From the IMG/VR virus record IMGVR_UViG_3300032007_000008: a DNA stretch of 64,000 bases. One strand, 5' to 3'. Shown piece by piece: positions 20,273 through 26,375 of this stretch. Every line of letters begins with the position of its first letter. Within the stretch, counting starts at the first letter, position 1. Origin of the DNA: a virus (Duplodnaviria; Heunggongvirae; Uroviricota; Caudoviricetes). The notes beneath the pieces are model-generated. The model was not told where the DNA came from and did not search any database. It saw only the letters and a program-made list of their open reading frames with translations. The translations under genes were made by a program, and so were the position numbers.

Positions 20273-22159
20273 TTAAAACTTCCTCTTAGCCTTCCAAGTC
20301 TTGAAATCGGAAAAGTCCTTGACAATAGGCTTTTTAATTCCTTTGGATTCGTCTGTCGCCGCCTTTGACGAAGATGCAGAACCTGTCGATGGCTTTACTA
20401 CGGAGGAAATCTTTTCGCCTCCCTTGGACACTGCGCTTTTAACACTATTTACTGCACTGTTCAACTTTGGCGCAACCTTCTCACCGGCCTTAGCCACGGT
20501 ATTTCCAACCTTTGTCGCAGCAGCGGAAAGCTTTGGAGAAACCTTTCCCGCGACAGCGTTCATCTTATTTGCCAAATTTGGTGAAATACCGCCTGCGGCA
20601 GCTCCGACGGCACCGCCTATTGCCGCGCCCTTTGCACCACCCTTGAGAACGTCTCCGACCAACGAGGAATCCTTGTCGGCTTTGCCTGTGATATGGTCTA
20701 CGACAGCCTTGCCAGCTCCTACAACCGCACCGCCTGCCGCTCCTATCGCTCCACCGACTCCTGCGCTCTGCAAATTCTCGTTTGCGTTCTGAACACTCTC
20801 GGAAAAGTCATCGTTCGAAATGGAATCTTCGCCGTCGGAGTCCATGGACTGGAACATGTTTTCAACAGCCTCATCGTTCACTACTTCCGAAGTGTTGTCG
20901 GAAACTCCCTCGTTCGTCTTCTTGTCACTCGTGCGCATCATCTTTCCGAGTGCCACACCTCCTATAAGACCTATTCCGGCTCCAGCTCCCTTCATGAGAG
21001 TGTTTGCATTTTTTGCAACTGAGCTGAAATCGGAACCGGCTTTCGATACTGTCGCATCAAAATTGTCCATCGAAGTGTGCGCTCTGGAAGTTACACCCGA
21101 AATATCGCTTCCGGCCTTTGATACTGTTGCGTCTATGTTATCAAGCGAAGTGTTTGCGCGATTGCCAAGCTGTGAAACGGTGCCAGAAATTTCTCCTCCG
21201 ACTCTGCTCACATTAGCGTCGAGATTATCCATTGATGCAGCCGCCCTGTTCTTGACGGTATCTATGGCATCCGACGCCTTTCCGCCAACGCTGCTTACGT
21301 TCGCATCAAGATTGTCCATCGAAGCCGCTGTTCTAGCCTTGACGGTATCTATGGCATCCGACGCCTTTCCGCCAACGCTGCTTACGTTCGCATCAACATT
21401 TCCAAGCGTCTGTCCAACACGACCGCTTATATCGTCAACAGCTCCGCCTAGCTTGTCGGATGTAGCCTTTACGGAAGAAGCCGCACCGCTAATGTTTTCC
21501 AAGCCATCTGAAACTGAAGAAGCCTTCTGCTTGATGCCTGAAAGTTTTCCTTTTACCTTGTCAAAAAAACCTGGCGACTTATCGTCTTCAGTTACCTGTC
21601 CGTCTTCAGGTTTTTTTTTTCCAATCATGTCGCCGACCTTATCTCCGATAAAGCCGCCTGCCGCCCCTCCAAGCATACCTCCGACCATGCTTCCGATTCC
21701 TGGGGCTACGGCATTTCCGACGAGCATGCCTCCGACAGAACCGGCTAGGCTTCCGACGGTATTTCCTGTAGCACCTTCGTCAACCTCCTTGTTTTCTCCA
21801 TCGGAATTATCGTCATCGTCGTTCGTGGAAGCATTATCGTCTCCGTCGGAAGATGGAAGACCGCCATCTCCTTCATTGTCTCCGCCACCAAGACCGTCGT
21901 CTCCGCCTAGACCGTCTCCTGAGTCAAGACCGCCTTCGCCATCGTCGGCATTTCCTTCTCCATCATCGTCAGAATTTCCATCGTCGTTGGTGTCTGAATT
22001 CTCATCGTCATCGCTCTGTCCCTCATCCTCGTCTTCATCATCCTTAAGGATTGGGTCGTCAGGCTCGATGTCAAGTTTCTCCATCAAAGAGTGGTTTCTG
22101 TCACGGAGTTCCTCGATAATTTTATCGAGTCCCGCCAACACGTCAGTTTCTTTCATCAT
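20273..22159 (-). CDS. Putative internal head/ejection protein B (628 aa, glycine zippers, 29-aa repeats, DFKTWKAK terminus)
   Basis: Own late promoter (22193-22200); acidic D/G N-terminus; GxxxG zippers; VDEG, VTED, TNEG and ANEN sites. Confidence 0.6.
   Translation of the reverse strand: MMKETDVLAGLDKIIEELRDRNHSLMEKLDIEPDDPILKDDEDEDEGQSDDDENSDTNDDGNSDDDGEGNADDGEGGLDSGDGLGGDDGLGGGDNEGDGGLPSSDGDDNASTNDDDDNSDGENKEVDEGATGNTVGSLAGSVGGMLVGNAVAPGIGSMVGGMLGGAAGGFIGDKVGDMIGKKKPEDGQVTEDDKSPGFFDKVKGKLSGIKQKASSVSDGLENISGAASSVKATSDKLGGAVDDISGRVGQTLGNVDANVSSVGGKASDAIDTVKARTAASMDNLDANVSSVGGKASDAIDTVKNRAAASMDNLDANVSRVGGEISGTVSQLGNRANTSLDNIDATVSKAGSDISGVTSRAHTSMDNFDATVSKAGSDFSSVAKNANTLMKGAGAGIGLIGGVALGKMMRTSDKKTNEGVSDNTSEVVNDEAVENMFQSMDSDGEDSISNDDFSESVQNANENLQSAGVGGAIGAAGGAVVGAGKAVVDHITGKADKDSSLVGDVLKGGAKGAAIGGAVGAAAGGISPNLANKMNAVAGKVSPKLSAAATKVGNTVAKAGEKVAPKLNSAVNSVKSAVSKGGEKISSVVKPSTGSASSSKAATDESKGIKKPIVKDFSDFKTWKAKRKF
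21050..21410 (-). repeat. 87-bp (29-aa) in-frame tandem repeats, degenerating distally
   Basis: A ~58-nt block starting ttgacggtatctatggcatccgacgcc recurs at 21252 and 21339; protein unit LDANVSSVGGKASDAIDTVKxRxAASMDN. Confidence 0.9.
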
Positions 22160-22216: not shown

Positions 22217-23236
22217 TTACAGTTTACCATACAATGAAATCAACAGTCCAATCATCTGTAGGCTTGGGTCTGTAACCTGACTCATGCGATATGCAGAATC
22301 CGCAATCATCGGAATGGTGGTATGGCTGTATCCGTTTCGCATTACGGATTCCATGAGTGAACTTGCAAAAATCTCATAATCCCCAGAAAATATTTGTGTA
22401 TTGCCAGTTACAGTCATTCGCACAGTTCTGTAGTCCTTTCCATCCTTGACCATCTTGAGAATCTTATCGGCGAAAGTGTCAAGTTCACTTGAGGCAGTAT
22501 TTACCTTTGCGTCATCTTTTATTCGCAAAGTACCGTCAAAGCACATCAACTGTGCCGTATTGATTATTAGACGTATATCAGGCATGCTTGGAGCGACAAA
22601 TTTCTTCGTGAATTCAAGCGCGGTTTCACGGTCGTACTTTATCCCCTCGGCATCCCATATAGTCTTCAATCGGCATGCTACGTCCTTGAGCGTAAAACCT
22701 ATATGGAGTTTTGGGCAGCGTGAAAAGATAGGCTCGATAATCTTCTTCGGATAATTGCAGGTTATTATGAATCTCGTATCTGTGAAAGACTCCATCAGAG
22801 AACGCAACGCCTTCTGCATTCCATTTGCAGCCGCGTTTCCGCCTGACGCTGCATCGAACTCGTCCAGAATTATGCACTTAATCCTGCCAGACGAAGCCGA
22901 TTCACAGAAAGGCTGAATCCTATTCCTAACGACATCGACGGTTCCGTCAACGCCGCAGTTTAGAAAAAGGGTCTCAGCATCGACAGACCTAGCCAACAAT
23001 CTTGCCAATGTCGATTTTCCTATGCCTGCCGTTCCAAACAGCGTCATGCTAGAAATATCCTTGGATTCAATCATGGATTTCAGCAGGTCCTTCGTATCTG
23101 CGTTAAGAACCATGTCATCCAACGTTCGAGGGCGATATTTTTCAACCCACGAAACGCTTACGTTCTTTACCGTCTTGTCATCGTTCTCGTTTGTCGAGAA
23201 TATGTCTATCTTTTCTTCTGTGTTTTCTGTTTCCAT
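22217..23236 (-). CDS. g44: Clamp loader AAA+ subunit (T4 gp44/RFC-like)
   Basis: WVEKYRP, GTAGIGKST (Walker A), IILDEFD (Walker B), FIITCNY and SRC motif. Confidence 0.95.
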   Translation of the reverse strand: METENTEEKIDIFSTNENDDKTVKNVSVSWVEKYRPRTLDDMVLNADTKDLLKSMIESKDISSMTLFGTAGIGKSTLARLLARSVDAETLFLNCGVDGTVDVVRNRIQPFCESASSGRIKCIILDEFDAASGGNAAANGMQKALRSLMESFTDTRFIITCNYPKKIIEPIFSRCPKLHIGFTLKDVACRLKTIWDAEGIKYDRETALEFTKKFVAPSMPDIRLIINTAQLMCFDGTLRIKDDAKVNTASSELDTFADKILKMVKDGKDYRTVRMTVTGNTQIFSGDYEIFASSLMESVMRNGYSHTTIPMIADSAYRMSQVTDPSLQMIGLLISLYGKL

Positions 23237-23248
23237 GTCAATTCCGTC

Positions 23249-24799
23249 CTAAAAAATGTCAAATGAAGCGTCCTCTACGGATTTCGTAGGGTCGAACTTC
23301 GAATAGTTCATGATATTTACATAATTTTCGAGGGACTTTGTGAAAATCTTCTCAAACATCTTGTTGTAGTCCTGATGGAACATAGTCCTGAACTCGTCTG
23401 GAAATACACCCTTAAACCCGACAACATCAAGCCCATATGGATTGGTTGGAAGAACATAGGAATATCGCATTTCGTCTCCAATTCCTATATTGGGATATTT
23501 TCCTCCTATGTTAAGCTCTTCAAGCAGTCCATTGTATATGTTTGCAGCTCTCGCATGTACGCCCGCGCCCTTTTCCGACTTCGTAAGGCTTATTGCGGCT
23601 TTCGGCGTTCTAAGCTTCTTGTAGAACGACATATCGCCCCAATCCAACTTTATAAACTTCCTATACGCCTCGTTAACAGCCGATATGTAGTCGCTTTCGC
23701 TCCACCGTCTCGTCATTGTCGTTTCATAGATGTCCTTTAAAAACGTCTTCATCGAAGCTGGTATTTCAGCCTTCTTTACGGAAATGCCAGAATATTTGAA
23801 TTTATCGCACGGAAGGTCGTCCGAAATAATCTTGTGAACTATGTAATGCTTCTTCTTGAAATAGAACCCCTCCGCAGCAATATACTCCAACGCATACCTC
23901 AGCACACTCCCCTGCGTAGTGTAGCAGTTGGTGTTTATTAGCTGCTCGACGTTCGCGTTCACAAGCTTCATTATATTGTATGCGTCGTCTACGACGGCCT
24001 TCTTGACGTTTTCTGGAAGTTCGGAAAACCGCGTATCCTCTGAAATTCCGGCTTCGCGGCATTTGCTCTTGGTTATTGGAGAGAGGTTTATAAACTGAGA
24101 GTTGTGGACTAACACTCCATTCGCGTAGTATACATGCATCCCAGACTTGACTTCAAGGTCATACACCCAGCATCCTTGCTCGTTTGGGTCTTCTTCTACG
24201 GATTCTACCGTTGCGGCTCCTGTACTAGCATACAGTGAAAACATCGGGTCTCCACCGGCATAAGCATAAGATTCCTGCTCTCCGTCGAACACCCTTTTGC
24301 ATTCGGCCATTGTGAAATCCTTGGCCTTGTCTATGAATTCCTCAAGAACCGGAAGCTTGTCTCCTACCTTAAGCTCCTTGGCAGACTTGAACCCTATTAG
24401 GTTTTCTATTGAATACTTGTCTGGTTCATCAATGCATTCATGGGAATCTAGCTTCTCAAGCATCTCGTCGAACAAATCGTTGTAGTATGAACATGTATGG
24501 TCGTTCGTTGTCTTGAGAATGAATTTCTTTCCATCGGAAACGCGAGACGCACGGATTGTATATATCGGCTTTGTAACAAAATGCCTCGATATGCAAACCA
24601 CATCGGAATACGTGTCGGACCTTTTTCTATCAAACATGGAAAACACGCCAGAACCGTAGTCTCCTACGCGAACCTTCACCGTTCCGCTATTCGGTCTTAT
24701 CAGAAAATTGGAATTATCTCCGTTTTTAACCTCTTCCACATCCATTTTTGATGAAAGGATGTCCCAGAGTCTGCCTATGTTTAGATTTACGTCTTTCAT
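23249..24799 (-). CDS. g43: Split-intein C fragment fused to the C-terminal half of family B DNA polymerase
   Basis: Residues 1-233 carry intein blocks B (TTNDH), F (VYDLEV) and G (VHN). The extein starts SQFIN, the continuation of YGDTD|S, then KKKHY, KYSGISVKK and FEKIF polB motifs. Confidence 0.88.
   Translation of the reverse strand: MKDVNLNIGRLWDILSSKMDVEEVKNGDNSNFLIRPNSGTVKVRVGDYGSGVFSMFDRKRSDTYSDVVCISRHFVTKPIYTIRASRVSDGKKFILKTTNDHTCSYYNDLFDEMLEKLDSHECIDEPDKYSIENLIGFKSAKELKVGDKLPVLEEFIDKAKDFTMAECKRVFDGEQESYAYAGGDPMFSLYASTGAATVESVEEDPNEQGCWVYDLEVKSGMHVYYANGVLVHNSQFINLSPITKSKCREAGISEDTRFSELPENVKKAVVDDAYNIMKLVNANVEQLINTNCYTTQGSVLRYALEYIAAEGFYFKKKHYIVHKIISDDLPCDKFKYSGISVKKAEIPASMKTFLKDIYETTMTRRWSESDYISAVNEAYRKFIKLDWGDMSFYKKLRTPKAAISLTKSEKGAGVHARAANIYNGLLEELNIGGKYPNIGIGDEMRYSYVLPTNPYGLDVVGFKGVFPDEFRTMFHQDYNKMFEKIFTKSLENYVNIMNYSKFDPTKSVEDASFDIF
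24101..24799 (-). mobile_element. Intein C fragment, no block A, no homing endonuclease
   Basis: Ends HN at 24101-24106, immediately followed by Ser+1. Confidence 0.85.
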
Positions 24800-24802
24800 C
24801 TC

Positions 24803-25390
24803 TCAACCGTTAAATTTCACCGCAGGAAGCCTATAGTCGTAATCGAAATACTTCGTCTTCCCAAGAACATACATTGCATTATCTTCCGAGGAGTGGAGAG
24901 AAACCTTGTCGCCTATTCCATATCCCCGATATTCGCAACCTTCTCCTATCGACCTGACTATTCCATACGGGTCTATATCCGTAATCTGAATAAAGCCGTA
25001 TTCGTTTATAGTCTCTTTTGGCTCAACAGCCTCAAGTATTATTCTTCCCTTAAGGGCATGAACTTCATTTCCGTTTACATCTGTCCTAAAAAGCACGTTC
25101 TTGCAATTTATGAAAGAGATTGGAAACGTATCGGCAAAACGGGCAAGCATGTCAACATACACGTAGTCTCCAACATTTATCGATGTCTTCTCATTCACCT
25201 TCGCGCCTTGCTTGACAACCCTGTACCAGAACATGCGAGTATTCCTGTTGAGGGAGTCCACCATAACTATTTCACCGTTTCTCTGCTCTACATTTGGAAC
25301 CTCTGCACGAATACACATCATGTCGTCTCCCATTTGCCGTGGAATGACATCATATTCTCCGTCTGATTGTCCTATCTGCTGAATGTTCAT
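24803..25390 (-). CDS. Tandem two-domain GroES-like co-chaperonin
   Basis: Two units: ..GEIVM..RVVKQG..INVGDYVYV and LKGRIILE..GFIQI..GIVRSIGEG..IGDKV. Confidence 0.7.
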   Translation of the reverse strand: MNIQQIGQSDGEYDVIPRQMGDDMMCIRAEVPNVEQRNGEIVMVDSLNRNTRMFWYRVVKQGAKVNEKTSINVGDYVYVDMLARFADTFPISFINCKNVLFRTDVNGNEVHALKGRIILEAVEPKETINEYGFIQITDIDPYGIVRSIGEGCEYRGYGIGDKVSLHSSEDNAMYVLGKTKYFDYDYRLPAVKFNG

Positions 25391-25416: not shown

Positions 25417-25445
25417 ATTATAGCACAGAAGCGGTTTTTCCGCAA
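25417..25445 (-). promoter_or_regulatory. sigma70-type promoter TTGCGG-17-TATAAT (extended -10) inside an inverted repeat
   Basis: -10 at 25417-25422, -35 at 25440-25445; 13-bp arms AGAAGCGGTTTTT/AAAAACCGCTTCT at 25427-25439 and 25450-25462. Confidence 0.7.
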
Positions 25446-25489: not shown

Positions 25490-26320
25490 CTATCCGACAA
25501 GCTCTCTCGCATCGCATGGGTATTTCGACACGAAAATCTCGCCTGCGCAATTTCGGCTGTTCGCCTCCATTACGTTTGATGGCGGAGGTGCAATAAACAC
25601 GGACTCGCAAACTGAATTTTCCTTGAAGGTGAACCGTTTCATCGTCCCTTTGTCGAATGGACTGTCTTCGGCATTCACTTTGTTCAAAGAGGTGAAATAT
25701 TCCTGAGCTATGTCGTTCAGTTTCGCATCCTTCCCAAACCACCTCTGTTCAGTGCCAACAGGGTCTCCATTCGGGTACTGTGTCGTCACATAATAGTATG
25801 GGGCTTCGCCTGGGGGACAAATAAGAACCGATTCCTGACGATACTTCTGTCCAAGTGCTATCGCAGCCTTTTTTACGCGCTCAAATGGATTTTCGTCACT
25901 GTTTCCAGACTGCGCTGGAATAAGAAACGACCTTTCGAACACATCTTCGCCAGGAGTTACCTCAGGATGTTCGTTGTCGCGACCTTCCTTGTATCCTCCA
26001 AAAACCTGTACATATCCAAGTCCCATGCTTTTGAGGTCTGACTGCAACTCCTTGGTCTTCACGTTGTTCCAATATTTCGGATTGACGTATGTTGACTGCA
26101 AATTCTTCGATAGAGCCTTAAACTCGTCGCTATCGGTTCCACCAAGCTTTCCAACCTCATATGCAGCCCAGTCTCCCCTGCATGCGGAAACTATGCAGTA
26201 GCCAACATCCTGCTTTCCGAGGACATGAGCAAGTGACGCTTCGCTAAGCTCTGTCGCACATGTTGATTCAACGACCTGCTTATACGCTTCAGCTATTTTC
26301 TTGTTAAACAATATATCCAT
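25490..26320 (-). CDS. SAM-lyase-like protein (T3 SAMase/Svi3-3 family) with an N-terminal extension
   Basis: CIVSACRG..NNVKTKELQSDLKSMGLGYVQVFGGYKE..ERSFLIP..LGQKYRQESVLI parallels the VSAFR..GxYxE..ExS..QDxVL pattern I recall for this family. Start set at MDILF; GTG 26341 is the alternative. Confidence 0.65.
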   Translation of the reverse strand: MDILFNKKIAEAYKQVVESTCATELSEASLAHVLGKQDVGYCIVSACRGDWAAYEVGKLGGTDSDEFKALSKNLQSTYVNPKYWNNVKTKELQSDLKSMGLGYVQVFGGYKEGRDNEHPEVTPGEDVFERSFLIPAQSGNSDENPFERVKKAAIALGQKYRQESVLICPPGEAPYYYVTTQYPNGDPVGTEQRWFGKDAKLNDIAQEYFTSLNKVNAEDSPFDKGTMKRFTFKENSVCESVFIAPPPSNVMEANSRNCAGEIFVSKYPCDARELVG

Positions 26321-26346
26321 AAGCCTATTTTTCCGTAACACCGTTA

Positions 26347-26375
26347 AGTATACTACATTACTCAGTTTTTGTCAA
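26347..26375 (-). promoter_or_regulatory. sigma70 promoter TTGACA-17-TATACT
   Basis: Near-consensus boxes with exact spacing. Confidence 0.8.

Follow-up and report, generated by a model that had tools for sequence, protein, structure and literature searches.

The open reading frame at positions 23249-24799 of a 64,000-nucleotide stretch of viral DNA (IMG/VR record IMGVR_UViG_3300032007_000008; this whole stretch is called the window below) starts with a piece of an intein and continues into the C-terminal part of a family B DNA polymerase (PolB), which raises the questions of where the remainder of the polymerase is encoded and how the two parts are made into one enzyme. The window corresponds to bases 99039-163038 of a 291,479-bp record that is rated 100% complete by CheckV, and the source is an uncultured T4-like jumbo phage whose 291-kb genome holds the T4-like core genes for portal, prohead protease, major head protein, gp44-like clamp loader and NrdD. 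The answer proposed here is that the replicative polymerase is very probably made from two separate precursors joined by split-intein trans-splicing, where the occurrence of splicing and its chemistry are what we infer from the characterised intein PolB16.

A polymerase gene in two distant halves

The frame is a real gene of 516 residues (P0001), as had been held in an earlier description made from the letters alone (the sequence-only reading), but its strand had to be corrected to minus. Its stop codon occupies 23249-23251, and since an in-frame TGA is found two codons upstream of the ATG, the frame cannot be extended upstream. Residues 1-233 form the C-terminal intein fragment (IntC), which holds blocks B, F and G, contains no block A, gives no match to endonuclease families in Pfam and PHROGs scans, and ends at the junction VLVHN/SQFINL (a slash marks the intein-extein border). 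This architecture, including HN/SQF, had been described before and turned out to be invariant in the alignment of 40 IntC-PolB-C sequences from which conserved columns were taken. The invariant positions are S71, H73, T98, D100, H101, Y213, D214, H232, N233 and S234; R72-H73 make up the NX pair, and N233 is the asparagine expected to cyclise, immediately before Ser+1. Furthermore, the catalytic positions stay invariant over 40 clusters while the identity of the intein drops to about 30%. Judged by these motifs, the intein belongs to class 1, has Ser1 and Ser+1 nucleophiles and is atypically split, with IntC as its C-terminal fragment; because IntC carries five non-catalytic cysteines, it should be called cysteine-independent in its nucleophiles and not cysteine-free.

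The extein that follows was likewise correctly taken to be only the C-terminal part of a polymerase, since residues 234-499 match positions 581-839 of the 856 in phrog_262 (DNA polymerase; E 2.6e-29), and it comprises the end of the palm after DTD, the KKKHY motif and the thumb. Its tblastn matches, with identities of 22-31%, are gp43 genes of T4-like phages, cyanophages among them. The identical C-half protein is found on two contigs, and none of the cultured phages in INPHARED covers its intein-plus-extein architecture.

A whole-genome search with PF03104 and PF00136 returned a sole locus for the missing half, which lies outside the window at G000:C1:220092-222029 (+) and encodes 645 residues (P0002; PF03104 E 2.8e-16, PF00136 E 6.4e-26). 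The window itself thus holds no exonuclease or palm region of a PolB, as had been stated, and the separate gene with a very short N-terminal intein fragment (IntN) that the sequence-only reading predicted does exist, some 96 kb away. The C terminus of its product reads KFNITISGDTD followed by SVTEDMELQLRVSDDIV and a TAA codon. The 17 residues of SVTEDMELQLRVSDDIV (P0002 629-645) begin with Ser1 and show a block A-like pattern, the tail SVTEDMELQL fits block A, and the nucleophile S629 stands immediately after GDTD; indeed, G625-D-T-D-S629 is invariant in the 24 N halves that were checked. The features of an atypical split are accordingly present, with a 17-residue IntN ending one product and a 233-residue IntC with blocks B, F and G starting another. 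The placement of the junction in the catalytic motif, between DTD and S, had been rightly recognised, but the motif is SGDTD and not YGDTD.

The N-half extein of 628 residues comprises the exonuclease, the finger and most of the palm domains, and ends in ISGDTD. It spans positions 19-583 of phrog_262 and the C-extein positions 581-839, so that the two proteins meet at a single point of the profile, and the exonuclease and polymerase domains of both halves together span the full-length profile of this T4 gp43-like family B enzyme. The predicted spliced product would have 628 + 283 = 911 residues with the junction SGDTD-SQFINL (peptide FNITISGDTDSQFINLSPITK), and intein-less relatives (881-900 residues) read GDTD-SQF[IV]N over the same point. 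A distance of 96,255 bp separates the gene starts (123,837 and 220,092), the strands are opposite and transcription is divergent, so the halves are necessarily on separate transcripts. No second copy of either half was found by tblastn against the 291-kb genome, no family match to PolA, Pol III alpha or a second PolB was found in it, and an intact polB, which was to be looked for elsewhere in the genome, is likewise absent; as far as these family searches indicate, the split PolB is the phage's single replicative polymerase. A scan of the neighbours revealed no endonuclease gene adjoining either half, and a fractured-gene layout is therefore not what is found here.

The AlphaFold2 model of IntC residues 1-240 has a mean predicted local distance difference test score (pLDDT) of 86.4, and IntC as modelled has the horseshoe-shaped HINT fold of inteins. 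The top Foldseek matches in the PDB are all inteins (best E 1.1e-6), with Aes123 PolB1 in first place and RadA, TFIIB and PolB16 among the others. In a complex model of IntC 1-250 with P0002 606-645 the interaction prediction score from aligned errors (ipSAE) is 0.84 against 0.01 for the best control, a value that 58 of 80 solved complexes attain, as do 2 of 110 mismatched pairs; contact agreement between runs is at least 71% and the pLDDT of the partner at least 56. The modelled interface brings P0002 626-645 together with the catalytic blocks of IntC (1-12, 39-44, 71-73, 95-102, 210-214 and 231-235). The model supports association of the fragments; since fused PolB16 is a solved structure, however, the score may mirror no more than the likeness to PolB16 and is not proof of binding.

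Likeness to PolB16 and the layouts of relatives

The resemblance to PolB16, which the sequence-only reading had suggested, was borne out by database comparison: among PDB sequences, residues 1-240 match the PolB16 intein 8cpn best (phmmer E 1e-6), with stretches aligned from Met1 to block G, and both have the exteins SGDTD / SQF and the nucleophiles Ser1 and Ser+1 (PMC10189870). A PDB sequence search with the tail of the N half gave chance matches only. PolB16 OarG comes from a sheep gut metagenome, where it likewise resides in a PolB gene, and its structure is known (PDB 8cpn/8cpo; Pasch et al. 2023, PMC10189870). It has the exteins SGDTD / SQFCN, an IntN of 15 and an IntC of 168 residues, is active in trans-splicing in vitro in a pH-dependent manner, and depends on an essential His68 preceded by Arg or Lys, a new motif named NX in which the histidine is specific to Ser1 inteins (PMC10189870). 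According to a paper of March 2026, no natural intein other than PolB16 is known to be cysteine-less as well as atypically split, and the 15-residue IntN of PolB16 is the shortest among natural split inteins (PMC13014065).

With this intein the present one shares the host gene, the insertion site between DTD and S of PolB motif C (ISGDTD / SQFIN here), the Ser1/Ser+1 nucleophiles, the split just after block A, the [R/K]-His pair of NX, and alignable blocks B, F and G. It differs in the lengths of IntN (17 residues versus 15) and IntC (233 versus 168), and in having five non-catalytic cysteines where PolB16 has two. The surplus of 65 residues in IntC falls in three loop expansions, after the first hairpin, after block B and before block F, of which the second is modelled as helices with pLDDT above 90. 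A BLASTP comparison of IntC with a near-PolB16 IntC gave E 1e-17 at about 29% identity and 35% gaps. On sequence grounds the split intein is thus a new, diverged relative of PolB16, of which type one intein has been characterised so far.

Other Ser1, cysteine-independent inteins are known from PolB genes of T4-like and jumbo phages, namely Aes123 PolB1, CP21 PolB1, MIJ3 orf153-155 and Salicola SCTP-2, and MIJ3 shows the fractured-gene layout with an HNH endonuclease (PMC11923092, PMC12707363, PMC6892783). These share with the present intein the nucleophile class and the host gene, but are either unsplit or split canonically at the endonuclease position (IntN about 115-120 residues, IntC about 39) with adjacent halves. 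Replicative polymerases whose two parts come from distant genes and are united by protein trans-splicing are likewise familiar from Nanoarchaeum equitans PolB (Neq Pol) and cyanobacterial DnaE (Ssp/Npu), the halves lying about 83 kb and about 745 kb apart. Those are however found in cellular genomes and have the canonical split site and a long IntN, with Cys nucleophiles in DnaE, whereas here the genome is that of a phage and IntN has 17 residues. Trans-spliced polymerases with distant halves and Ser1 inteins in phage PolB are already known; the present locus differs in its larger IntC, its dispersed halves and the lack of an endonuclease.

Searching IMG/VR for related loci with the single C-half protein gave nothing, and an alignment had to be used as the query. 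C halves form about 40 clusters from many samples, 431-516 residues long with an IntC of 149-233 residues, all with HN/SQF. The N-extein homologues number 103, and the majority (71) end in GDTD plus a short tail of 7-39 residues, mostly 11-24; a further 27 are contiguous without an intein, four have a long IntN of 63-123 residues, and one has a contiguous intein. In a maximum likelihood tree of the N-exteins (quick search, with Shimodaira-Hasegawa-like approximate likelihood ratio support only) the clade of the phage comprises 33 rows with a support of 93, and all 33 are atypically split. Split forms alternate with intein-less ones in the sister clade, even among near-identical exteins (P0098 versus P0109), and such near-identical polymerases with and without the intein suggest a mobile element and ongoing homing.

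A locus of the sister-clade type, L014, has an IntC that matches PolB16 with E 1.6e-62 and an N half (L014:2-1111) that ends with the 12-residue IntN SITKDTILYIRS. Its halves are separated by 1.9 kb, with a free-standing homing endonuclease of 575 residues (L014:1229-2956; phrog_3339, E 6e-118) between them, whereas the halves here are 96 kb apart and no endonuclease is present. In L031 the frame directly behind the N half was expected to be the C half, and is instead an endonuclease-like protein of 415 residues (L031:10040-11287) with a weak REase_MTES_1575 match. Inteins with an endonuclease between the halves are known as fractured genes (Dassa et al. 2009, NAR, cited in PMC6892783), and this is likely the ancestral state, as an endonuclease-like frame follows the N half in L014 and L031 and none lies beside the halves here. 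The dispersed layout is seen again on a related contig of 280,907 bp from another sample, where about 118 kb separate the halves, again on opposite strands, and the neighbours match: the C half is preceded by a protease and a Cpn10-like gene, and the N half follows an exonuclease and precedes Cpn60. In two further relatives no partner half was found within 4-8 kb.

The endonuclease-less intein thus probably descends from a fractured-gene form as kept in the PolB16-like sister clade. A single inversion with its breakpoint between the halves would disperse them and fix the intein in the clade, and such an event could lie at the origin, the gene orientations being consistent with it. We infer that the element is mobile in loci with the endonuclease and became fixed after rearrangement had parted the halves, since an intein in parted halves cannot be lost by precise deletion, which is a simpler account of its fixation than a regulatory role. 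As far as the literature searched here shows, this is the first genomic context for a PolB16-type intein, namely T4-like jumbo phages. In one clade the halves lie beside a homing endonuclease and in the other tens of kilobases apart, with the intein fixed in 33/33 sampled N halves, and the contrast shows a route by which a mobile element may become locked into an essential gene. For PolB16-type tools, the locus furthermore provides a second, strongly diverged cysteine-independent atypically split intein, and the 71 N-half clusters with 7-39 residues (mostly 11-24) after GDTD are candidates for orthogonal or faster ones.

Some of these N halves deserve separate mention. Those of P0116, P0118, P0119, P0122 and P0123, on contigs of up to 405,906 bp, end in GDTD plus 11 residues (SFWGDTKIMLV). 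The 11- and 12-residue IntN candidates are shorter than the 15-residue record of PolB16, and C partners were identified only for the L014 form. In addition, P0052 and P0054-P0057 are close N-half homologues 70 to 430 residues longer, with only 48-65% query coverage by the best local alignment, which may point to an additional insertion or fusion within the N-extein.

The proposed trans-splicing and its alternatives

If the two products splice as PolB16 does, precursor 1 would be the PolB N part of 628 residues with the 17-residue IntN, and precursor 2 the 233-residue IntC with Ser+1 and the last 283 residues of the polymerase. IntN would dock onto IntC and supply the first strands that its horseshoe fold lacks, Ser1 would then undergo an N-O acyl shift aided by H73 of NX and by T98 and H101 of block B, attack by Ser+1 would yield a branched ester, and cyclisation of Asn233 would release the joined exteins as a polymerase of 911 residues with an intact SGDTD-SQFINL motif C. 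Several observations weigh against this proposal. At intein position 4, IntN has Glu against Gly in each of the 23 aligned relatives; the match of residues 137-233 to Pfam Intein_splicing stays below the cut-off (E 2.8e-4; 21 versus 35.8 bits); IntC exceeds that of PolB16 by 65 residues; and the model has low confidence in the expansion before block F (about residues 153-192). Residues other than Gly at position 4 are tolerated by other active inteins. Furthermore, PolB16 itself is slow and shows C-cleavage side reactions (PMC13014065), so the efficiency of splicing here is not to be assumed.

The same glutamate could be taken to favour a two-subunit polymerase in which no splicing occurs and the intein fragments are only a non-covalent clamp for PolB-N and PolB-C, and the complex model, which supports association and cannot show chemistry, would fit this as well. 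Such an enzyme would resemble that of Aeromonas phage 44RR, which Petrov, Ratnayaka and Karam are said to have described in 2010 in J Mol Biol as split into gp43A and gp43B; there, however, no intein is reported. We consider a mere clamp very unlikely, since the residues needed for chemistry (Ser1, H73, T98, H101, D214, H232, N233 and Ser+1) are all invariant while the rest of the intein is only about 30-50% conserved across the same family, and since the homologous PolB16 does splice. That the locus is an artefact or a dead gene, be it a mis-assembly or frameshift of a contiguous polB or a decaying remnant, is so improbable that it can practically be discounted. Nothing was found to support it, and the frame upstream of the C half is in the same frame by chance, with TGA-GAG between. 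A read-through fusion of this frame with IntC was considered and rejected, the upstream frame being a conserved and unrelated Cpn10-like gene whose counterpart in the relative overlaps the C half but is read in another frame. The check for frameshift or misassembly, proposed with the sequence-only reading, likewise came out in favour of an intact gene, since the same layout is found in the independently assembled relative. In addition, the C-half protein is present on two contigs, about 40 clusters from many samples share its architecture, and the genome has no other polymerase.

Trans-splicing as a replication switch, with the halves differing in timing or level or with splicing dependent on conditions, had been suggested from the distance between supposedly separately regulated halves. 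It would agree with the separate transcripts (opposite strands, 96 kb), with an arrangement that is fixed across the whole clade, with the pH dependence of PolB16 splicing and with the chaperonin genes that adjoin both halves. The promoter-like sites however speak against separate regulation. A genome-wide pattern scan gave about 40 sites (TTGACA-like, 11-13 nt, TGTGsTATAmT) versus 0.8 in shuffles; they are sigma-70-like with an extended -10, many lie 5-60 nt upstream of open reading frames, and the spacer is 12 nt in those discussed here. One heads the C-half operon (Table 1), and another, at genome position 218493 (+), lies ahead of the N-half operon, which consists of exonuclease, PolB-N and a 278-residue gene and has a strong terminator-like hairpin at its end. 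The sites at window position 26375 and genome position 218493 share 25 of 30 bases and are mutual closest matches in the genome, and same-class sites occupy equivalent positions in the related contig. A 30-nt element was at first taken as unique to the two operons, and looser scans made it a member of the family of about 40 sites. One promoter class on both operons, with mutually closest sites, favours co-expression of the halves over a separately regulated switch, and by their consensus these sites point to co-expressed halves. Since fixation has the simpler explanation given above in the impossibility of precise deletion, we regard a switch as unlikely, and two co-expressed precursors joined by trans-splicing as the preferred reading. 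A bolder form of this reading, which we hold to be doubtful, is that the dispersed split intein of this clade, devoid of an endonuclease, is no longer a selfish passenger and would instead be an obligatory, co-regulated step of replicase assembly, of which the matched promoters and the Cpn10-like and Cpn60 neighbours may be signs, and that the wider family (about 70 clusters, IntN 11-24 residues) would also hold ultra-short, cysteine-independent split inteins that are faster than PolB16.

Neighbouring genes and further observations

Table 1. Features at the C-half locus (window coordinates)
Feature	Position	Strand	Description
IntC	24101..24799	-	233 residues (1-233); blocks NX, B, N4, F and G; best PDB sequence match PolB16
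C-extein	23249..24100	-	last 283 residues of gp43-like family B DNA polymerase; begins at Ser234 (+1)
Motif NX, S71-R72-H73	24581..24589	-	S71 and H73 invariant in 40 sequences; residues 71-73 in modelled IntN interface
Block B (N3), T98-N-D-H101	24497..24508	-	T98, D100 and H101 invariant; in modelled interface
Blocks F and G, V212-Y-D214 ... H232-N233	24101..24166	-	invariant columns; aligned to PolB16 blocks F and G
Cpn10-like gene	24803..25390	-	195 residues; TGA 3 nt before C-half ATG; 51% identical homologue at same position in related phage
gp44-like clamp loader	22217..23236	-	directly downstream of C half; Pfam AAA E 2.9e-15; phrog_168 E 1.2e-56
Promoter-like site	26347..26375	-	TTGACA-17-TATACT, 11/12; heads 283-residue gene, Cpn10-like gene, IntC-PolB-C and clamp loader
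Promoter-like site	25417..25445	-	TTGCGG-N12-TGTGCTATAAT; 26 nt upstream of Cpn10-like gene

The gene that precedes the C half likely encodes a tandem Cpn10/GroES-like co-chaperonin, for which the ESM Atlas feature and structure matches to Cpn10 clusters (0.94, TM 0.68) are a lead only. A Cpn60 gene lies outside the window at G000:C1:223315-225015 (+) (Pfam E 7e-54), 1.3 kb downstream of the N half, and the pairing of the Cpn10-like gene with the C half and of Cpn60 with the N half is kept in one related phage; it may be plain synteny or reflect a link to the folding of the split precursors. The 283-residue gene heading the C-half operon (window 25490-26341, minus strand) matches S-adenosylmethionine lyase PF23780 just below the threshold (E 3.6e-6; 27.4 versus 28 bits) and is by this match a candidate anti-restriction gene.

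At window 20273-22159 on the minus strand a gene of 628 residues is found with an acidic N part rich in Asp and Gly, with glycine-zipper segments and with internal repeats of about 30 residues (..DNLDANVSSVGGKASDAIDTVK..), and a 448-residue antisense frame over it is probably a low-complexity by-product. A near-identical sub-family of the promoter-like sites (TTGACTTCACAATCCTG..TGCTATAAT) is clustered at genome positions 3-40 kb, ahead of small open reading frames. Finally, a scan of the genome with PF14890 returned only the PolB IntC, below the cut-off, and missed a second intein outside the window, which was found by way of a weak block F/G tblastn match in a UvsX-like recombinase gene of 602 residues (G000:C1:195443-197251 (+) = L029:4444-6252; phrog_97, E 1.2e-39). 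This intein is contiguous, about 230 residues long and situated inside the P-loop (..FYGESG/CVLPG ... IVAHN/SGKSLIV) with Cys1 and Ser+1, and a site of the same promoter-like class is found immediately ahead of the gene.

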